Shown: positions 27,801 to 59,559 of the stretch, piece by piece | Numbering within the stretch: position 1 is the first letter of the stretch | Layout of the letters: the number at the start of each line of letters is the position of its first letter | NCBI GenBank assembly: GCA_002373935.1 | Contig: DFKW01000004.1 | Span: forward strand, 27,704-91,703 | Reading direction: 5' to 3' | Source of the DNA: Alphaproteobacteria bacterium UBA3635 | Lineage (GTDB): Bacteria > Pseudomonadota > Alphaproteobacteria > Rs-D84 | DNA: 64,000 bases | Program-made: the position numbers and the translations under genes | The notes under the pieces: generated by a model | What the model was told of the DNA's origin: nothing | Database searches by the model: none | The model's input: only the letters and a program-made list of their open reading frames with translations

Positions 27801-27951
27801 AAAACATTCTCTCTATTTTAATAAAATATATCAAAAATCATAATGTTGCGCAATAAAAAACGACGGGCAAAAACCCGCATTTATTCAGGCAAAATTTTAT
27901 GTTGCAAACACGGCTTTTTTTGTTTAACATGCAAGCACACAACGCATCAAA

Positions 27952-28025
27952 GGCCAGGTGGCAGAGTGGTTATGCAGAGGACTGCAAATCCTTGTATGCC
28001 GGTTCGATTCCGACCCTGGCCTCCA
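27952..28025 (+). tRNA. tRNA-Cys (GCA)
   Basis: GGCCAGGTGGCAGAGTGGTTATGCAGAGGACTGCAAATCCTTGTATGCCGGTTCGATTCCGACCCTGGCCTCCA. Cloverleaf with anticodon GCA and an encoded CCA end. Confidence 0.9.
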
Positions 28026-28037
28026 ATTTTTTTCAAA

Positions 28038-29120
28038 ATGATTGATTGTTTAACTCTGACCGATTTTAGAAACCACAAAACATCGCGCATAAATACACAT
28101 GGCGCAAAAAACATTGTTATCATTGGCGAAAATGGTGCCGGCAAAACCGCCGTACTGGAGGCGATATCCATGTTATCCGGGGACCGTGGTATGCGCGGGG
28201 CGGACATGTCTGATATTGCGCGATTTGGTGGCACGGGTGGTTTTTCGGTGTTTTGTGAAACCACGGGCGACGATTTAATATCTGTATATTTTAACCCGGG
28301 CGAAAATAATCGGCACGCAAAAATAAATGACGAAAATGCCGCATTGGGGGAATTGGGAAAAATATTGCGCATTGTGTGGATTTCCCCACGCGAAGACCGT
28401 TTGTTTGTGGATAATGTCGCCGACCGGCGCGCATTTTTTGACCGCATGGCATCTAACTTTGACCCGGCACACATTGGGCGCACCGCACGATTTTCAAAAC
28501 TGTTATCGGAACGGGCGGCGGCATTAAAATCGGGCGCAGATGCACATTGGTTGGACGCATTGGATGACCAATTGGCGGGTGTTGCGGTTGCGGTGGCGAC
28601 GGGGCGCGTGCAATATGCGGGCGAATTAAATTTCTTTTTGGAAAAATTTAGTGTGTCGGTTGACGGCATTATCGAAAAAATGATAATTGCGGGCACGCCT
28701 GCGGCGGCGGCAGAACGCGAATATCGTAATTATTTGGCACAAAATCGCGAGTTGATATATGACAAAATGGTTTTGGATGGGCCACATAAATCTGATTTCG
28801 GGATGTTTAACAACGAATTAAATTTGCCGGTAAAAACCACCAGTACCGGTCAACAAAAAAACGCGTTATTTGATTTGGTTTTGGCACACACAGATTTATT
28901 ACACACAAAAACAAAACAAAACAGTATTGTATTGCTGGACGAGGCCGCCGCCCACCTGGACGCGGGGACGCGCGCAAAAATTTTCAAAAAATTAAACGAT
29001 ACACATACCCAGGTTTGGGCAACCGGATTGGATGCCGGGGCGTTTGTTGATGTGCCGGACGCCGTATTTGTCACTTGCGCGGACGGCGAAATTAGTTCTA
29101 TAATCCATCCGGAGATTTAA
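28038..29120 (+). CDS. recF: DNA replication and repair protein RecF
   Basis: LTLTDFRNHK followed by Walker A GENGAGKTAVLEAI. C-terminal signature and Walker B LLDE. Start set at MIDCLTL, downstream of the tRNA. Confidence 0.85.
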   Translation: MIDCLTLTDFRNHKTSRINTHGAKNIVIIGENGAGKTAVLEAISMLSGDRGMRGADMSDIARFGGTGGFSVFCETTGDDLISVYFNPGENNRHAKINDENAALGELGKILRIVWISPREDRLFVDNVADRRAFFDRMASNFDPAHIGRTARFSKLLSERAAALKSGADAHWLDALDDQLAGVAVAVATGRVQYAGELNFFLEKFSVSVDGIIEKMIIAGTPAAAAEREYRNYLAQNRELIYDKMVLDGPHKSDFGMFNNELNLPVKTTSTGQQKNALFDLVLAHTDLLHTKTKQNSIVLLDEAAAHLDAGTRAKIFKKLNDTHTQVWATGLDAGAFVDVPDAVFVTCADGEISSIIHPEI

Positions 29121-29624: not shown

Positions 29625-30125
29625 TTATTTATTGAAAATTTCGCCGCGAAAGTCCGGGTCACCCAAAAAATTATATGAACAACGATATGTGCACAGGTTT
29701 GCACATTCGGCGGTATTGCGGAACTCACCACGATATGCCCATTTTGTCGGTGTTGTTTTATGTATATCGGATGTAGTCGCAATTATTTTACACCAACAAT
29801 GCGGACCGCGTTTTTCCGCCGCAATAAACATCCCATCGGTGTTTTTGTCGTTGCATGTACTGGTCCCCAGGACATTTGTTTCATCATAAAACGCGCGCCA
29901 ATCACCCGGATTTAATCCCGTTGCATGATTTTTCGCACTTTCGTCCAATTGGTAATAGCCCGAACCAAATCGAAACCAATCGATATTCGTGTCATCAACA
30001 TATTGCGGAATATTTTCCGCCACCGCATCGGCAAAATCGTTCGTGACATTTCCATATTCGTCGTATTCAGCAAACGCCGGTACGCATACAAACATCAATA
30101 AAAACGCGATAATTTTATTTTTCAT
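29625..30125 (-). CDS. Secreted cysteine-rich protein with the CWCK/CxxxCxYxCxY/PDFR C-terminal module
   Basis: Signal peptide MKNKIIAFLLMFVCVPAFA. C-terminus ..HCWCKIIA..KWAYRGEFRNTAECANLCTYRCSYNFLGDPDFRGEIFNK. Confidence 0.6.
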   Translation of the reverse strand: MKNKIIAFLLMFVCVPAFAEYDEYGNVTNDFADAVAENIPQYVDDTNIDWFRFGSGYYQLDESAKNHATGLNPGDWRAFYDETNVLGTSTCNDKNTDGMFIAAEKRGPHCWCKIIATTSDIHKTTPTKWAYRGEFRNTAECANLCTYRCSYNFLGDPDFRGEIFNK

Positions 30126-41657: not shown

Positions 41658-42108
41658 GACATCAGAAATCACCAGGGAGTTGATTTCGGAAAGGCACTTC
41701 AAAAGCCTGAACATAACCGGTGCAAAGTTTGCATCGTGACTCTCCCGCACTCGTCCGATTCGATTCGGCGGGGCTGTGTTTGTTGCATACATATTTTGCA
41801 CCGACATTTATTTGTCGATTTTTTTGATTTATAAATGTAAATTTTTATTCCCACTATGTGAACCCCATCGTTGTATTTGGCGGGGGTGCTGCATACAGTA
41901 ATGTATGTGGGATCATTGTTATGTTTGGTTTTTGAACACCCTAGCCGCGCTCTTCCTGATGATGGCGGTGTTTTTTTTGTGTTTTGTTTTACTGCGGGAT
42001 TTTTTCAAACCGAATCCAATTCCCAGTAAAAAAACTAAGGCCATAAAAAGTTCCGATAAAACAAAACACATCCACCGCACTAATAAAACAACGAACGGGG
42101 AGAAAGAA

Positions 42109-43644
42109 ATGAAAAAAATTTTATGTGCGATGTTGGGAATAATCGGGATGTTCATAACACCGGCTTACGCATTACCGGCGGGGTATACAGAGTTAGAGTA
42201 TATCAAATCCACCGGGACACAGTATATTGACGATATAATAAAACCTAATCAAAGATATTCATTTGAAATTAAATACAAGCATACTGTATCAGAAGGTTAT
42301 CAACCATTGTTTGCATTATACGATGGTACTTCAGGTTATTCGTATGGTTTTATGGAAGGTAGTGCAGAAAAAGGAAATTATGCCTATAGCGGCAATAGCG
42401 AAACTTTTACATTAGCATATGATACCAGCACTATATATACATTATATTACGATGGAATAAATAAAAAGGTGTTTCGTAATGGAACAGAAATTGTAGATTT
42501 TAGTGATACAACAGGTTTTTCTGGAACAACAGGTGTTGCACCAAGACTTTTCCAAATAAGAAACGGAGAACATTATAGTAGTACTTTTAGTTATTCGTTT
42601 AAAGGTTACGCATACAGTTTTAAGGTATACGATGATAATAATAATTTAGTTCGCAATATGATTCCTGCTAAACGCAACAGCGATAATGCGATTGGTATGT
42701 ACGATACGGTTGGCGGGCGGTTTTATGAAAATGCAGGTTCGGGTTCTTTCATTGCCGGCCCGGTTGCAGAAATCAAAGTTGCAACCACAAAGTATGTGGA
42801 AACGCAGTTTAGTGATTTGGGCACGCGGTTGGCGGCGGCGGTGGCGACAGTGAATACGGTCGTGACCCAGACGATTGCCCAGGCGGGGAGTATTGCAACT
42901 TTGCAGAGTGGCAAGCAAACCCGCCCAGATGAAACCTGTCCCGCCGGTAAAAAGTGCCTGCTGGTTGAGGGGACCGACGGCCAACCCCATTGGTATGAAA
43001 TATTTGACCCGATAAACCGCTGGTTAGAGGCATTTTTCAAAACAAACCCGAACGGACAACTTGTCGATGGTGGCGCAGATTTCCGCCGGTGGCAGGGTAA
43101 CCCAGATTTCCGCGAAACATATATTGATGGTTCAACATCGGTCTATGCCCGTCAATGGACGGCGGCATCGCCCGCACGCTCGATTGGTGGCTTGTATCAA
43201 ACATTGCCTGCGGGCGACATTGAAAACGCCGGCACATGGGCGGTTGAATTTGATGGCACCGAGGGCGACGGCGTAAACGCGGGCGCGGTGTATGGTATTG
43301 CAAAATGCACGTCTGTGGTGGGGACAATTGCCACAAAATTGACATCGGCGCAAGAGAGTGCGTTCTATACATTACCGGCACCGGTGGGTCAAACGGACAA
43401 TGCAAATTATCCGCGGGAAAACTTTAAAAACTGCTGGTGCAAGATGACGGCGGTGGGTGTGCCTGGTGCGGATGGAACGGCTGCAAACGGTTCTGTGTAC
43501 CCTGTAAATGCGTCGTCCTCTGCGTGGGTCTTCAGCCCCACGTTCGGTTCGGCCGCCGCTTGTGCGGGCAACTGTGCGTACGACTGCGCGTACCGCGTCC
43601 GTGCTAACGCAGATTTTAGAACCGCAGTTTTTGGTTTGGATTGA
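42109..43644 (+). CDS. Secreted protein: signal peptide, AT-rich lectin/ConA-like N-domain, GC-rich C-terminal region ending in the CWCK/CxxxCxYxCxY/DFR module
   Basis: RBS ggggagaaagaa then ATG; MKKILCAMLGIIGMFITPAYA. C-terminus ..NCWCKMTA..AWVF..AAACAGNCAYDCAYRVRANADFRTAVFGLD. ORF-track start 41905 is an upstream in-frame extension. Confidence 0.65.
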   Translation: MKKILCAMLGIIGMFITPAYALPAGYTELEYIKSTGTQYIDDIIKPNQRYSFEIKYKHTVSEGYQPLFALYDGTSGYSYGFMEGSAEKGNYAYSGNSETFTLAYDTSTIYTLYYDGINKKVFRNGTEIVDFSDTTGFSGTTGVAPRLFQIRNGEHYSSTFSYSFKGYAYSFKVYDDNNNLVRNMIPAKRNSDNAIGMYDTVGGRFYENAGSGSFIAGPVAEIKVATTKYVETQFSDLGTRLAAAVATVNTVVTQTIAQAGSIATLQSGKQTRPDETCPAGKKCLLVEGTDGQPHWYEIFDPINRWLEAFFKTNPNGQLVDGGADFRRWQGNPDFRETYIDGSTSVYARQWTAASPARSIGGLYQTLPAGDIENAGTWAVEFDGTEGDGVNAGAVYGIAKCTSVVGTIATKLTSAQESAFYTLPAPVGQTDNANYPRENFKNCWCKMTAVGVPGADGTAANGSVYPVNASSSAWVFSPTFGSAAACAGNCAYDCAYRVRANADFRTAVFGLD

Positions 43645-43709: not shown

Positions 43710-45701
43710 ATGGCACAGAAATATTTAATTACATCGGCGTTGCCCTATGTGAACAATGTGTTACATATTGGGCATTTGATTGGATGTTTATTGCCAAGTG
43801 ATGTTTATGCGCGTTTCTGTCGCGCGTTGGGTCGCGATGTGTTATATATTGGTGGTTCTGATGAACATGGAACCCCGTCCGAGGTTGGTGCCCAAAAAGA
43901 AAATATGCCGGTCGAAGATTATGTCGAAAAATACCGCGCAAAACATCTGGACGCGGTGCGGGATTTTAATTTGTCTTTTGATTTATATGGTCGCACGCAT
44001 ACAAAATTGCACGAAAAATTAATTCATGAATTGTTTGAACGGTTGGACTCGATGGGTATGGTTTATGAAAAATCGTCAATGCAGCCGTATTCAATAAATG
44101 AAAAAAAATTCTTGGCGGACCGGTATGTTATTGGGACTTGCCCGCGGTGCGGATATGATGGCGCGTATGGGAACGAGTGCGATAAATGTGGCGCGTCACT
44201 GGACCCGGATCAATTGATAAATCCGCACAGTGCCGTTGACCCGTCGTCCCCGGTTGAAATGCGTGAAACAAAGCATTTGTATTTTAGATTAAGTGCCATG
44301 CAGGATAAATTACGCGCATGGATAAATTCACGCCAGGGGTGGCCAAAAACCGCAATCGCAATCGCAAATAAATGGTTGGACGAAGGACTGCGCGATAATC
44401 CAATTACTCGTGATTTGAAATGGGGAATTCCGGTTAATAAACCCGGTTTCGAAGACAAAGTTTTCTATGTTTGGTTTGATGCGCCGTGGGGTTATGTTTC
44501 AATTTCCCAGGCGGCAACGGACAATTGGGCCGATTGGTGGAAAAACCCGGATTGTAAATATGTGGAATTTATGGGCAAAGATAATGTATCTTTCCATTCT
44601 GTATTTTTCCCGGCCCAAGAATTGGCAATGGATGATGGATGGAAAACCGTCGATGTGTTAAAAGCGTTCAATTTTATGAATTTTAATGGTGAAAAAATTT
44701 CTAAATCACGCGGCAACGGTATATTTTTAGACAATGCGTTATCAATCGCGCCAAGTGATTGCTGGCGGTATGCGTTGCTGGCATCGGCACCGGAAACAGA
44801 CGATACCGATTTCACCGTGCAAAAATTTGCAGAAATCGTGAATAAAGATTTGAACGGTATGTTGGGGAACTTTGTTTCACGCGTTTGCAAACTGACCGAG
44901 AAAAATTTTGGATTGGTGGTCCCAAATCAAAGTTCAAAGTTCAAAGTTCAAAGTTCAGTTATAGCAGATAAAATAAACAAAAAATTAAACGATTTAACCA
45001 CTGCATTGGATCAATGCGAATTTCGTGCGGCGATTTTTGCGCTGCGTTCGCTGTATGCGATTGGTAATGAATATATGACGGAAACGGCACCTTGGGCATT
45101 GGTCAAAGACGGTAAAATGGACGATGCCGGTTCTGTGTTGAATAACTGTTTTCAAATGATTGATTTATTTGCACGCGTGTCGGCACCGTTTATGCCAACT
45201 ACCGCCGCAAAGATGCAAAATATTTTTGGCGCGACGCATGATTTGTCGTGGCCGACATGTTTTGAACACAGAATCGCAAACGGTGAAAAATTTGCCGTGC
45301 CGGAAAATCTGTTCGAAAGAATTGACGATGCGCGTGTCGCAGAAATCAACGAAAAATATTCGGCAAAGCCAAAAACAGCCGCCCCGGTTGTCGCAAAAAT
45401 TTTGGATATTAAATCACATCCCCGGCGCGATGATTTACACATTTTGACGGTGGACAGTGGCAACGACAAATTACAAATCGTTTGTGGTGCGCCAAATGTG
45501 CGCGTGGGGATGGTTGGGGTTTTGGCACCGGTTGGGTGCGTTTTACCGGGCATGACAAAACCATTGGCGGCGCGTAATGTCGGCGGGGTAAAATCCAATG
45601 GCATGATGTGCAGTGCGCAAGAATTAGGTGTTGGGGGGGATGCCACAAAAATTATTGAATTGGATGATACATATAAAATTGGTTCGGAATATAAAGGATA
45701 A
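43710..45701 (+). CDS. metG: Methionyl-tRNA synthetase with C-terminal tRNA-binding (EMAP/Trbp111-like) domain
   Basis: HIGH as NVLHIGHLIG, zinc knuckle CPRCGY..CDKCG, KMSKS as KISKSRGN, C-terminal tRNA-binding domain. Confidence 0.9.
   Translation: MAQKYLITSALPYVNNVLHIGHLIGCLLPSDVYARFCRALGRDVLYIGGSDEHGTPSEVGAQKENMPVEDYVEKYRAKHLDAVRDFNLSFDLYGRTHTKLHEKLIHELFERLDSMGMVYEKSSMQPYSINEKKFLADRYVIGTCPRCGYDGAYGNECDKCGASLDPDQLINPHSAVDPSSPVEMRETKHLYFRLSAMQDKLRAWINSRQGWPKTAIAIANKWLDEGLRDNPITRDLKWGIPVNKPGFEDKVFYVWFDAPWGYVSISQAATDNWADWWKNPDCKYVEFMGKDNVSFHSVFFPAQELAMDDGWKTVDVLKAFNFMNFNGEKISKSRGNGIFLDNALSIAPSDCWRYALLASAPETDDTDFTVQKFAEIVNKDLNGMLGNFVSRVCKLTEKNFGLVVPNQSSKFKVQSSVIADKINKKLNDLTTALDQCEFRAAIFALRSLYAIGNEYMTETAPWALVKDGKMDDAGSVLNNCFQMIDLFARVSAPFMPTTAAKMQNIFGATHDLSWPTCFEHRIANGEKFAVPENLFERIDDARVAEINEKYSAKPKTAAPVVAKILDIKSHPRRDDLHILTVDSGNDKLQIVCGAPNVRVGMVGVLAPVGCVLPGMTKPLAARNVGGVKSNGMMCSAQELGVGGDATKIIELDDTYKIGSEYKG
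44927..44959. repeat. AGTTCAAAGTTCA repeat (4 tandem units) inserted in frame within metG
   Basis: caaagttcaaagttcaaagttcaaagttcagtt encodes ..NQSSKFKVQSSVIADK.. in the anticodon-binding region. The reading frame is preserved. Confidence 0.75.
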
Positions 45702-45704
45702 AAT

Positions 45705-46058
45705 ATGGTTAAGAAAAATGTAAGACATCGTGAGGAAAATTATTATTCTGTGCGTGTGGTTGGCGAAAACAATCGTGATTTGTTTATTGTGCCATGGCAT
45801 GGAAATGTTGAATCTTTGGCGCGTGATGTAAATGAAATAACAAACAAAAAATGGACCCGGATTAAAGTTTTGAAATATACTCAATATGTCGATTTATATA
45901 AAAAATCCGGTTCGCCTATCGTTTGTCAGCGGCGCGCAATGTTAAAAATTGACCGTATGGGCAGTGGTTCTTTGTGTACCAAGGTTGATGAAAATTTAAT
46001 GCGAAATGGCGCGATACCGCAAAATATTTTGGCTTTCTTTGGCGAACATCAAAAATAA
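45705..46058 (+). CDS. Hypothetical protein (117 aa), low-GC
   Basis: RBS aaagga 7 bp upstream. No recognisable motif. Confidence 0.5.
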   Translation: MVKKNVRHREENYYSVRVVGENNRDLFIVPWHGNVESLARDVNEITNKKWTRIKVLKYTQYVDLYKKSGSPIVCQRRAMLKIDRMGSGSLCTKVDENLMRNGAIPQNILAFFGEHQK

Positions 46059-46074
46059 AAAAAAGGATACACCC

Positions 46075-46632
46075 ATGCCCAGACATAAAATCGTTTATAA
46101 ATATTCTTGTAAAATTTATTCGGTAAATTCACGCGATGCAAAAAATATAGATTTGCCGGAAAATATGTCCGGGGATGAATTTGCAAAAATTATCGAACGA
46201 CAAAATTTAATTGATGTCACAAAAATATCACTGGTGCGGACAAAGTGTGTTTATGATTTGCGCGCAAAAACACATAATAATTTTGTTGGGAAAAATACGG
46301 TATTAAATATCTATGTCGATGATACGGTGAGAACAGAACGCGATATTCGCAATATGCTGGAACGAAAATACAAATCAAATATATATGGCGTTCCAAACAC
46401 AAATACAAATTTACCGTTTGTTTTGACGCGGGTTATACCACAAACCAAATATGGGGTTGTTTATGGAACAGACTGTGAAAAATCATGGACAGAAAATCAC
46501 GCAACCGTTGAAAAACCAAATCCAAAACGCGATGTGATTATAAATCGGTCGGGGAAACAAATTTGGCCACGCAACACCGACGCGTTGCCTCGCGTTGTCC
46601 AAGAATTTTTTATCAAACGACAAAAGGACTAA
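46075..46632 (+). CDS. Hypothetical protein (185 aa), low-GC
   Basis: RBS aaaagga then ATG at 46075. The ORF-track start at 46006 is an extension overlapping the previous gene. Confidence 0.5.
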   Translation: MPRHKIVYKYSCKIYSVNSRDAKNIDLPENMSGDEFAKIIERQNLIDVTKISLVRTKCVYDLRAKTHNNFVGKNTVLNIYVDDTVRTERDIRNMLERKYKSNIYGVPNTNTNLPFVLTRVIPQTKYGVVYGTDCEKSWTENHATVEKPNPKRDVIINRSGKQIWPRNTDALPRVVQEFFIKRQKD

Positions 46633-46639
46633 TTTTAAC

Positions 46640-47347
46640 ATGGCAACAAAATATAAACTGTTTGGGGTTTTGCAAAATGGCGATAAACGTGCGTTGTTTA
46701 ACGGCGCAACTTTTTCACAAAAACAAAATGCGATAAAAAGATTAGAGACGGCGGCAAACAAAAATAAACTGTCCGAGTTTACAAAAATTATTTTCCAAGA
46801 AATTAAATTTTTTGAACGCGGACCAAATGTGGCAAAGTGGCCCGATGGTCAAACAACAGATATAACTTTTGATGTTATGGATGGAAAAATACCGTTGGAA
46901 AAAAATAAATCTGTGTTGATAAAACCACGGGTGGTGGTAAAAAAATCTGAAAAATTTGTGCGCTATTCTTATATTGAAAAATACGCAATTGCACATCGGT
47001 CGTCGATCAAATATTTGCCCAAAAATGTCGATGTGGTCGATTTTATTAAACGATTGCAAAAATTGGATTTCAAATATCTGAATTGCGTTTTGTTGGTGCG
47101 CGAGGTTTTTGATACAGATACAAACGATGCTATATTTTACGAACAAATGTTATATAACCCGGTGTATTTATTACATGACATGTCGGGAATTACAATCGGG
47201 GCGTTGAATACTAAACAAAATACAACCATACGCTATATCAACAAACGCGATTTGCCAATCACAAAAACTATTTTAAAACATTGGATAGATAATAGTGATA
47301 AAATCAATCCAAAACTGATAAAATTTTTGGGACAAAATGAACGATAA
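46640..47347 (+). CDS. Hypothetical protein (235 aa), low-GC, lysine-rich
   Basis: RBS aaaagga then ATG at 46640. Overlaps the queH start by 11 bp. Confidence 0.5.
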   Translation: MATKYKLFGVLQNGDKRALFNGATFSQKQNAIKRLETAANKNKLSEFTKIIFQEIKFFERGPNVAKWPDGQTTDITFDVMDGKIPLEKNKSVLIKPRVVVKKSEKFVRYSYIEKYAIAHRSSIKYLPKNVDVVDFIKRLQKLDFKYLNCVLLVREVFDTDTNDAIFYEQMLYNPVYLLHDMSGITIGALNTKQNTTIRYINKRDLPITKTILKHWIDNSDKINPKLIKFLGQNER

Positions 47348-47876
47348 ACGCCGCTTGGTTTTGATGTCTTGTTGTGCGCCGTGTTCTGCGGGCGCAATTC
47401 GTCAGTTGGCAGACGGCGCGGTGTCGGGCGTTGGTGATTTTATCGTTTTGTTTTATAATCCAAATATATATCCCGATTTCGAATACCAAAAACGATTGAC
47501 CGAACAAATTAAATACTGTGAAAAATTGGGTGTGAAATATGCGGTCGGCGATTATAATCACGACGCATGGCGGGAATGTGTGCGTGGGTTGGAGGATGCA
47601 CCCGAACGCGGCGCGCGATGCAGTAAATGTTTTGCATTTCGGTTTGCGTATGCACGCGAATTTGCCGCGCAACACGGATACGATGCCGTTGGGTCTGTGT
47701 TTGGTGTGTCGCGATTCAAAGACCAATCCCAGGTTGATGCCGCCGGGCGGGATGCGTGTGGCGAAATTATTTATATGCCAATCGATTGGGACGAAAGTTT
47801 GCGCCAAAAAATCAACCATGAATCCGATTTTTACCGGCAAAAATATTGCGGTTGCGAATTTTCCATGCGCAAATAA
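47337..47876 (+). CDS. queH: Epoxyqueuosine reductase QueH (DUF208)
   Basis: Hallmark CCAPCS N-motif, conserved CSKC, and C-terminal YCGCEFS. Confidence 0.8.
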   Translation: MNDKRRLVLMSCCAPCSAGAIRQLADGAVSGVGDFIVLFYNPNIYPDFEYQKRLTEQIKYCEKLGVKYAVGDYNHDAWRECVRGLEDAPERGARCSKCFAFRFAYAREFAAQHGYDAVGSVFGVSRFKDQSQVDAAGRDACGEIIYMPIDWDESLRQKINHESDFYRQKYCGCEFSMRK

Positions 47877-58466: not shown

Positions 58467-59559
58467 ATTAAAAGAAGTAACTATTCGTGAACTTGCCAAA
58501 GGTTATGTTGATAATATGGAAGACGGTGTTGTCGCGTATTCTGGGCGATTGGATGTTCGCCCGGCATATCAACGGGAATTTGTATATAAAGACAAACAAC
58601 GCGATAATGTTATTGATTCTGTTCGTAAAAATTATCCGTTAAATGTTATGTATTGGGTTGATAATGGAAATGACCAATATGAAATTTTAGACGGTCAACA
58701 ACGCACAGTTTCTATATGCCAGTATGTTAACGGGTATTTTTCAATAAACGACAGACAATTTGATTCTTTGGAACAAGACGAACAAGATAAAATTTTAGAT
58801 TATCAATTACAAGTTTATGTTTGTTCAAATGGAACAGATTCTGAAAAATTAGAATGGTTCAGGACTATAAATATTGCTGGCGAAAAATTATCTGACCAAG
58901 AATTACGTAATGCCACATATCGTGGGCCATGGTTGACCGAGGCAAAAAAACATTTCTCTAAAACCAATAATCCTGCCCAGGCAATCGGCGATAAATACAT
59001 TTCTGCAAAATGGAACAGACAAGAAGGTTTAGAAACGGTTTTATCTTGGATATCAGATGATAAAATAGAAAGGTATATGAACGAACACCAAAAAGATTCT
59101 AACGATAATGAATTATGGTTATATTTTCAATCTGTAATTGCTTGGGTAAAAACATTATTTCCAAATTACCGAAAAGAAATGAAATCTGTTAATTGGGGAT
59201 TGTTATATAATACATATCATACAAAATCGTTTGATGCCACAGAATTGGAAAAACAAATCTCTGTTTTGATGCAAGATAGCGAAGTTGAAAATAAACGTGG
59301 TATTTATGAGTATATATTTGATAACAACCAAAAACACCTTAATTTACGACAATTTGATGATAATATAAAACGCACTGTTTATGAAAAACATGGCGGTATT
59401 TGCCCAATGTGTCGTGGAACCGTAAATGAAAATAAAAAATGGGAAATCAGCGAAATGGAAGCTGATCATAATATTCCTTGGTCAAAGGGTGGAAAAACAG
59501 TAGAAGAAAATTGTGTAATGTTATGCAGACAACACAATCGTGAAAAAAGCGACAAGTAA
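58456..59559 (+). CDS. DUF262 (ParB/Srx-like, DGQQR motif) protein fused to a C-terminal HNH nuclease; GmrSD-like putative restriction endonuclease
   Basis: ILDGQQRTVSI. C-terminal CPMCRG...ADHNIPWSKGG...CVMLCRQHN (CxxC...H-N-H...CxxH). Overlaps the MTase gene by 11 bp. Confidence 0.65.
   Translation: MEIKLKEVTIRELAKGYVDNMEDGVVAYSGRLDVRPAYQREFVYKDKQRDNVIDSVRKNYPLNVMYWVDNGNDQYEILDGQQRTVSICQYVNGYFSINDRQFDSLEQDEQDKILDYQLQVYVCSNGTDSEKLEWFRTINIAGEKLSDQELRNATYRGPWLTEAKKHFSKTNNPAQAIGDKYISAKWNRQEGLETVLSWISDDKIERYMNEHQKDSNDNELWLYFQSVIAWVKTLFPNYRKEMKSVNWGLLYNTYHTKSFDATELEKQISVLMQDSEVENKRGIYEYIFDNNQKHLNLRQFDDNIKRTVYEKHGGICPMCRGTVNENKKWEISEMEADHNIPWSKGGKTVEENCVMLCRQHNREKSDK

Follow-up and report, generated by a model that had tools for sequence, protein, structure and literature searches.

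Three small genes, orf1, orf2 and orf3, occupy the junction between metG and queH in Alphaproteobacteria bacterium UBA3635 (45705–47347, forward strand). Coordinates are those of a 64,000-nucleotide stretch of contig DFKW01000004.1 (assembly GCA_002373935.1, positions 27,704–91,703) that was analyzed as a whole and is referred to here as the window. The interpretation favored here, to which a probability of about 0.6 is assigned, is that orf1–orf3 are lineage-restricted, vertically inherited genes that diversify in place at a junction in a housekeeping operon, and that their products may be non-catalytic binding proteins for which a conflict-type role is the likeliest. The central gene, orf2, represents a new, undescribed protein family with a confident predicted α/β fold.

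The three genes are co-oriented and closely packed. The open reading frame (ORF) of orf1 (45705–46058; 117 amino acids) starts 3 nucleotides past the metG stop codon and is separated by 16 bp from orf2 (46075–46632; ATG at 46075; 185 amino acids). A gap of 7 bp precedes orf3 (46640–47347; ATG at 46640; 235 amino acids) which overlaps the start of queH by 11 bp. Each gene is preceded by a ribosome binding site of sequence AAAGGA. That of orf1 (45693–45698) is within the final metG codons, 6 nucleotides 5′ of the ATG at 45705; that of orf2 (46062–46067) is 7 nucleotides 5′ of its ATG; and that of orf3 (46623–46628) is within the final orf2 codons, 11 nucleotides 5′ of its ATG. The upstream border of this interval, designated slot S1, is metG (43710–45701, forward strand), the product of which is methionyl-tRNA synthetase (Pfam tRNA-synt_1g, 8e-140; Anticodon_3; tRNA_bind). 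The downstream border is queH (47337–47876, forward strand) encoding epoxyqueuosine reductase (Pfam QueH, 1.6e-44), which also forms the upstream border of slot S2. An initial inspection made without database searches, termed here the sequence-only reading, had described a tightly packed, co-oriented and candidate lineage-specific set within a housekeeping string, and the gene lengths, binding sites, gaps and overlap that it listed are all present in the sequence.

The sequence-only reading hinged on the ORFs being present and unbroken in re-sequenced material, and the three are 100% identical across three independent assemblies (SRR5322898, SRR873603 and JGI 3300002641). Exact protein matches on record derive from metagenome-assembled genomes of uncultured Alphaproteobacteria, and the reading frames are uninterrupted in relatives as distant as 36–53% amino acid identity. 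When compared with the closest relative, the metagenome-assembled genome GCA_046881955.1 (synonymous divergence, dS, ~0.15), the ratio of nonsynonymous to synonymous divergence (dN/dS) was 0.26 for orf1, 0.34 for orf2 and 0.46 for orf3 and was 0.06–0.13 for neighboring genes, which indicates weaker but real constraint on the three genes. At the protein level, identity between the window and the relative at locus L005 is 42% for orf1, 72% for orf2 and 53% for orf3, compared to 87% for QueH and 89% for FabD. Thus, orf1, orf2 and orf3 are, on largely conclusive evidence, genuine protein-coding genes under purifying selection which evolve several times faster than their neighbors.

The composition of the three genes differs from that of the flanking core genes, as had been remarked on inspection. 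The GC contents of orf1, orf2 and orf3 are 0.37, 0.36 and 0.33, respectively, with GC at third codon positions (GC3) of 0.32–0.33, whereas metG, queH, fabD and fabG have GC contents of 0.44–0.49 and GC3 values of 0.42–0.50. Lysine accounts for 9–13% of residues in the three products compared to 4–7% in those of the four core genes. Low GC content is common to the other orphan genes examined in the window, namely h304 (304 amino acids; 0.37) and h152 (152 amino acids; 0.29), and to a methyltransferase–GmrSD/HNH gene pair described below. The low GC content of orf1–orf3 probably reflects weak constraint combined with AT-biased mutation. The three proteins are soluble with isoelectric points (pI) of 9.7–9.8 (9.8 for orf1), maximum hydropathy values of <1 and no hydrophobic segment; orf1 has neither a transmembrane segment nor a signal peptide.

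Relatives of QueH were taken from species-representative genomes, and the use of queH as an anchor produced 80 loci of ~12 kb. Many of these loci carry Candidatus Enterousia names, and the organism of the window is assigned to this gut genus, to which the orf1–orf3 families are restricted. Candidatus Enterousia is placed in order Rs-D84, possesses genomes of ~0.75–1.0 Mb that lack the tricarboxylic acid cycle and respiratory chains, and is suspected to have a partner-dependent lifestyle (PMC12306168). The metG-queH-fabD-fabG string is kept in essentially all of the ~80 species, and metG is the conserved neighbor of queH in ~74 Enterousia species. The metG|queH junction consists of a gap of ≤21 bp in 25 of 74 species, of ~280–450 bp with one ORF of 86–145 amino acids in ~30 species, and of 0.5–1.7 kb with one to three ORFs in the remainder. 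The queH|fabD and fabD|fabG junctions display the same variable-slot pattern. As the junctions in this string act as variable slots, the orf1-orf2-orf3 arrangement represents one of the states of a site that has long been variable. The description of the genes as inserted is apt insofar as metG abuts queH in one-third of the related species, but the site itself is a standing variable junction. A further slot in the window, the fabD|fabG junction, is occupied by the basic orphan gene h304 (48822–49736, forward strand) which shows the same slot behavior and belongs to an unrelated family. The h304 family is found throughout the clade of the window; elsewhere it is not present and fabD and fabG are 4–14 bp apart. 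When other slot-filling families were compared with Pfam, one known domain only was detected, a NUDIX hydrolase 3′ of queH in one clade.

In a tree based on MetG, QueH, FabD and FabG, the slot contents map mostly by clade. The orf1 gene belongs to an Enterousia-specific family with a C-terminal tail of the form IPxNIxxFFxxxQK; it comes after metG in the clade of the window, and its homologues come after metG in 11 loci. Several clades have genes resembling orf2, whether upstream or downstream of queH, other clades possess unrelated orphan genes of 90–130 amino acids at the same position, and the c3 family is patchy inside its own clade. The orf1-orf2-orf3 trio is confined to the narrow subclade of the window, comprising the window, L001 and L005 in the tree, with the same arrangement in L010 and L011. 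Elsewhere, genes like orf1, orf2 and orf3 are single or in other combinations, again on either side of queH. Only six related clusters at 90% identity were found for orf3 among 5.8 billion proteins, all in the same synteny, and a metagenome scan with orf3 yielded two loci only.

No viral or phage homologues of the genes were detected in three viral contig scans or in a tblastn search against phages, and a phage origin for orf1–orf3 was rejected when both approaches proved empty. The borders of the cluster contain short chance repeats only, with neither flanking repeats nor an integrase gene, and no tRNA or other RNA gene was identified between 43.7 and 48 kb using Rfam and tRNA scans. The absence of phage homologues, flanking repeats and RNA genes argues against recent horizontal acquisition. 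Taken with slot contents that track the core-gene tree, the absence of viral homologues and flanking repeats largely supports vertical inheritance of orf1–orf3, as judged from comparative sequence data. The suggestion that the genes were acquired horizontally is not supported, given their clade-wide presence at the locus, which tracks the core tree, and the lack of any of these hallmarks of mobility.

Several observations point to diversification of the genes in place. First, the 8-nucleotide sequence GCGCGCAA is present both in orf1 (45932–45939; codons 76–79) and in orf2 (46260–46267; codons 62–65). In L006, core genes of which are 96–97% identical to those of the window, the 328 bp between the two copies (window 45932 and 46260) are deleted. 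The product is an in-frame orf1(1–78)::orf2(65–185) fusion of 198 amino acids, with L006 2153–2749 corresponding to window 45705–46632. The existence of this fusion in one strain, together with the restriction of the trio to a narrow subclade when co-occurrence was checked, is at odds with the proposal that the three genes constitute a three-part system.

Second, orf3 is a mosaic. The gene comprises an N-terminal domain (46640–46921; codons 1–94) that is a stand-alone gene of ~90 amino acids in other species, a variable C-domain (46922–47230; codons 95–197), two or more allele classes of which are swapped among lineages, and a conserved C-terminal tail with the stop codon (47231–47347; codons 198–235; RYINKRDLPITKTILKHWIDNSDKINPKLIKFLGQNER) that aligns with the C-terminal signature of the orf2 family. 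The window and L006 share 95–99% nucleotide identity in metG, orf1, the end of orf2 and the orf3 N-domain, but only 40–59% in the interval 46903–47287 where L006 instead matches L005 at 84–94%. In the variable segment of orf3, dS between L005 and L006 is 0.26 compared to 0.64 in queH. Between the window and L001, dS is 0.47 in orf3 codons 155–197 versus 0.05–0.08 in the rest of the gene. As dN/dS is <1 in every segment of this mosaic gene, divergent C-domain alleles appear to be maintained and exchanged between lineages rather than produced by positive selection in place. Overall, the sequence comparisons largely support a pattern in which the families diversify at the locus as genes are duplicated in tandem, deleted and fused through microhomology, and divergent alleles are swapped by homologous exchange.

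Searches of Pfam, PHROGs, PADLOC, NCBIfam and PDB sequences provided no match for orf1, orf2 or orf3, in agreement with the view from sequence inspection that none has a motif that can be placed. Iterative searches of all ORFs in the fetched loci recovered ~25 full-length orf2 relatives, which in several clades fill the metG|queH or the queH|fabD slot. An exhaustive HMMER profile search of 1.84 billion proteins returned 135 representatives at E ≤ 1e-3, including 41 at E ≤ 1e-10, where representatives are clusters at 50% identity that typically are 180–200 amino acids in length. One member is a two-domain protein of 367 amino acids and tandem orf2-like pairs also occur, both further signs of diversification in place. 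Where a member came with annotation, this included neither a functional name nor a Pfam domain, and comparison of 96 members with Pfam and PHROGs gave no consistent match. The extras in longer members are weak and probably spurious: a below-threshold Phage_int_SAM-like match in P0094 and a Peptidase_S74 match in P0177, itself a marginal hit to the family. All family members in the 80 species loci are situated between metG and fabD, and five of five further members with readable context (P0053, P0101, P0040, P0116 and P0072) directly adjoin queH or fabD. So far as has been sampled, the family thus seems, on largely consistent evidence from these contexts, to be restricted to one lineage and one chromosomal place.

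The family is defined by a C-terminal signature, D[IV][IV]V[ND]xxLxQIWPxxTGxxPxxLxx[FL][FL], which in orf2 corresponds to residues 153–180 (46531–46614; DVIINRSGKQIWPRNTDALPRVVQEFFI). Over 96 aligned members, conservation is 88% for D153, 90% for Q162, 85% for W164, 95% for P165 and 97% for P172, all of which are carried by orf2. The conserved positions mostly are hydrophobic or are Pro or Trp, accompanied by one nearly invariant Asp, and do not form a catalytic-type set. The match of orf2 to the hidden Markov model (HMM) of this alignment, A6, extends over model positions 5–187 with an E-value of 1.2e-37, orf2 itself being one of the 96 sequences. The structure of orf2 was modeled with AlphaFold2. 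With 19 sequences the predicted local distance difference test (pLDDT) score was 39 and the model was unusable, whereas with 96 members the pLDDT was 92.5 and the predicted template modeling score was 0.86. The model has predicted strands at residues 4–16, 22–27, 48–61, 72–81, 114–128, 135–146, 154–156 and 162–164, and helices at 33–41, 88–99 and 173–178. These form long β-hairpins and three helices in the order ββα/ββα/ββ…α. Foldseek searches with the model produced no match at E ≤ 1e-3 in PDB or BFVD. The possibility that the three ββα units represent an internal sequence repeat was rejected as no such signal was evident.

When the three ORFs were compared with all ORFs in the window by BLASTP, no paralogues were detected at that sensitivity. 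In profile comparisons with hhalign, the N-terminus of orf1 aligned with that of orf2 over 78 columns (E = 1.5e-4; E = 0.006 against the 96-sequence profile), and the C-terminus of orf3 aligned with the 96-sequence profile over 41 columns (E = 1.5e-4; probability 51%) at positions that are C-terminal in both. There is an in-register KRD[VL] codon match between the orf3 tail and orf2, and jackhmmer seeded with orf2 pulls in orf3 after iteration. Stand-alone copies of the orf3 N-domain (L018, 2516–2797; L024, 5105–5377) matched orf3 with E = 3.5e-17 in hhalign. The relationship between orf1 and orf2 is supported by the L006 deletion, which swaps one N-module for the other in frame. Most likely, therefore, orf1 and orf3 are remote paralogues of orf2, to judge from these alignments, and the three genes are assembled from the same parts, with a ββα module at the N-terminus, a middle that varies and a conserved tail at the C-terminus. 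The impression of three unrelated proteins is thereby called into question, on marginal statistics. A derivation of orf1 or orf2 from the C-terminal tRNA-binding domain of MetG also was considered and was rejected (hhalign E > 0.2).

How might such proteins act? Each gene possesses its own ribosome binding site, stop codons abut or overlap neighboring start codons, and no convincing internal promoter or terminator was detected, so that orf1–orf3 probably are passengers on the housekeeping transcript. The solubility of the products, the mostly hydrophobic or Pro and Trp character of the conserved positions, and the lack of a match to any enzyme family favor non-catalytic binding or adaptor proteins. 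In such proteins the invariant C-terminal tail (D-I-V-V-N/D..L.QIWP..TG..P..L..FF) may contact a constant partner while the variable hairpin domains would determine what is recognized. A conflict-type role, for example neutralization or sensing of a variable foreign protein that originates in a phage, in a partner cell or in a competitor, is favored because orf3 allele classes are maintained and swapped, copy number turns over, and the host has a genome of <1 Mb and presumably depends on a partner. This is the likeliest functional class, at somewhat less than an even chance, and the shuffling of orf3 alleles is the sole positive hint of an immunity or defense function.

Several points weigh against this interpretation. 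No clue from fold, family or context indicates a specific activity. The mosaic orf3 alleles could result from ordinary recombination of a weakly constrained gene rather than from balancing selection, and no orf3 segment has a dN/dS of >1. The basic charge and low GC content may be mere AT-biased drift of fast-evolving genes; pI values span 5.0–9.8 across the orf2 family so that basic charge is not a conserved property. Statistical support for orf1 and orf3 as paralogues of orf2 is marginal: jackhmmer profiles can drift, and in a set of 7,212 ORFs the family HMM scored orf1 homologues at E = 0.012–0.026 and orf3 at E = 0.28. Passenger expression is deduced from sequence, the scan for promoters and terminators having given counts near to shuffled expectation. 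Finally, the restriction of the family to one place is assessed on loci of ~12 kb and short contigs.

A more ambitious form of the conflict proposal is that the orf2-like family and the derived orf1 and orf3 constitute a new system for recognition or immunity, built on a new fold, in gut Alphaproteobacteria that are ultra-small and depend on a partner. In this system, the constant tail would couple to a host factor, and hypervariable hairpin domains, with exchangeable alleles at one protected site, would neutralize or sense variable foreign proteins. This version is possible but doubtful.

Among explanations of a different kind, the one that survives best is that the proteins are accessory factors that bind tRNA, QueH or MetG and aid queuosine formation or Met-tRNA charging. 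A role with QueH or MetG would account for the constant association of the family with queH: every member of known context is directly upstream or downstream of this gene. The overlap of orf3 with the queH start suggests translational coupling, orf1–orf3 are strongly basic, and tRNA-related genes abound in the operon (metG, queH, mnmG and ileS). However, queH and metG are present in all of the loci, yet 25 of 74 species have nothing in slot S1 and the family is missing altogether from many species. Moreover, rapid evolution and allele swapping are unlike the behavior expected of a cofactor of a conserved enzyme, basic charge is not conserved in the family, and there is no similarity to the tRNA-binding domain of MetG. 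An accessory function therefore is considered unlikely.

A selfish, locus-specific element, either a degenerate homing-type gene or an operon parasite, would persist by wedging between essential genes without benefit to the cell. Confinement to strictly one locus, patchy presence and the exchange of divergent segments among lineages fit this description, as does the overlap or abutment of stops and starts with those of the flanking genes, such that only precise deletions would be tolerated. That selfish DNA targets the locus is illustrated by a DUF559 endonuclease domain located in frame within queH of one relative. The seg and mob genes of T4-like phages, which encode free-standing homing endonucleases, provide a close comparison: these also are small genes wedged co-oriented between conserved genes, with variable presence, one fixed locus and recombination in the flanks. 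In contrast to seg and mob, the genes described here reside on a bacterial chromosome and mostly are inherited vertically, and no GIY-YIG, HNH, LAGLIDADG or PD-(D/E)XK match to Pfam was detected in the three ORFs or in 96 family members. No other nuclease motif or family match was found, purifying selection operates in all lineages compared, and near-identical copies in distant hosts were not found. As to the sporadic distribution expected of homing endonucleases, presence is mostly clade-wise, yet orf3 C-domain alleles do swap among lineages and the c3 family is patchy. This explanation is distinctly improbable. The interrupted queH gene is a separate observation: QueH of the metagenomic relative at L095 (2852–4042) harbors an in-frame insertion of ~215 amino acids that contains a DUF559 (Vsr-like endonuclease) domain with PP(P)AGAVG repeats on either side, and looks like a selfish endonuclease inside queH.

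The sequence-only reading suggested a candidate lineage-specific system, possibly of effector, toxin-immunity or phage-defense type, or an acquired cassette. Combined, these suggestions amount to an acquired three-gene cassette that specifies a defense, toxin-immunity or effector system. The GC and GC3 values below those of neighbors, the tight operon-like packing and the abutment of metG and queH in many relatives accord with this proposal, and a low-GC gene pair elsewhere in the window demonstrates that acquisition happens in the genome. As do defense systems cataloged by PADLOC, orf1–orf3 form a co-oriented, multi-gene, low-GC cluster of unknown proteins. Unlike these systems, the components have no fixed co-occurrence, and none of the 5,027 models of PADLOC-DB v2 identified a family at E ≤ 1 for orf1, orf2 or orf3, or for h304 and h579. 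No toxin or immunity domain characteristic of toxin-antitoxin or polymorphic toxin-immunity loci was found with Pfam or NCBIfam, nor is there obligate gene pairing. Searches for the homologues, integrase, repeats and tRNA target that mark phage or mobile-element cargo likewise were negative.

Orphan immunity-gene arrays directed against polymorphic toxins, such as the acquired interbacterial defense clusters of gut Bacteroidales, also are tandem arrays of small, soluble paralogues without signal peptides that show rapid turnover and divergent alleles in a gut habitat. However, orf1–orf3 lack a match to an immunity or toxin family, an adjacent toxin gene, a mobile-element context and an integrase, and membership in this class is unsupported. 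The clade-structured distribution that tracks the core tree, the confinement of the trio to one subclade, the fusion of orf1 and orf2 by a deletion, and the equally low GC content of the other clade-specific orphans examined (h304 and h152) all speak against the cassette. Thus, with no defense or toxin signature, a recognizable effector, toxin-immunity or phage-defense system is not in evidence, and an acquired cassette is very improbable. The low-GC pair (57444–59559, forward strand) comprises a gene for an EcoRI-like adenine methyltransferase (Pfam 5e-121) followed by one for a GmrSD_N and HNH protein, with GC contents of 0.31–0.33 and GC3 of ~0.25. It is more plausible as an acquired restriction or defense pair than orf1–orf3.

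The notion that the ORFs are spurious or non-functional within an enlarged AT-rich spacer, which might be entertained from their low GC content, the lack of homologues beyond the lineage and their absence from many relatives, is effectively refuted by dN/dS values far below 1, frames intact at 36–53% amino acid identity, a canonical ribosome binding site ahead of every gene and the confident structure prediction that the orf2 family alignment supports.

With in-place diversification of junction genes as the preferred interpretation, the best parallel among known kinds is the taxonomically restricted gene family that occupies a variable slot flanked by core genes. As in orphan families of variability hotspots, core genes flank a short variable interval, the contents of which are small, of low GC content, fast-evolving and without known domains. 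Unlike hotspots, the slots here are single junctions in a co-oriented housekeeping string within a genome of <1 Mb. Furthermore, the contents are not mobile-element cargo, and the orf2-like family is confined to the locus where it diversifies by duplication, fusion and allele exchange.

Other features of the window and its relatives were noted. In ~16 Enterousia species (L028, L030, L035, L049 and ~12 further loci), MetG matches residues 1–539 only and lacks the C-terminal tRNA-binding domain that is present in MetG of the window. The h152 ORF (52237–52695, forward strand; GC3 0.18) adjoins tRNA-Thr (52741–52816) and its product has 29% identity to that of the same-position gene in L001, the closest relative, whereas flanking genes are ~97% identical; this pattern resembles the replacement of one allele by another at a different junction. 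Upstream of metG, an ORF of 579 amino acids (h579; 41905–43644, forward strand) displays an abrupt internal shift in GC content from ~0.33 in the first third to ~0.55 thereafter. It has no family matches, its exact sequence is absent from the protein collection searched, and its C-terminus is weakly similar to an ORF on the reverse strand (29625–30125). A tRNA-Cys gene (27952–28025, forward strand) falls inside the longest ORF at 27843–29120 and the true start of that gene therefore is downstream of the tRNA.

Loss of dispensable genes is the expectation for bacteria with genomes of <1 Mb, yet the Enterousia lineage retains orphan proteins within a string of essential genes, where they are duplicated and reshuffled. 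The locus offers a clear natural case in which new genes diversify at the junctions of an operon, and it illustrates that low GC content and a position between core genes do not imply recent horizontal transfer in such genomes. A new, well-delimited protein family with unusual endemism to one locus in a minimal genome is of interest for genome evolution. With 135 clusters in one lineage at one locus, and a confident predicted fold that is unmatched in the structure libraries searched, the orf2-like family is a well-defined target for asking what role fast-evolving genes have in partner-dependent gut bacteria.

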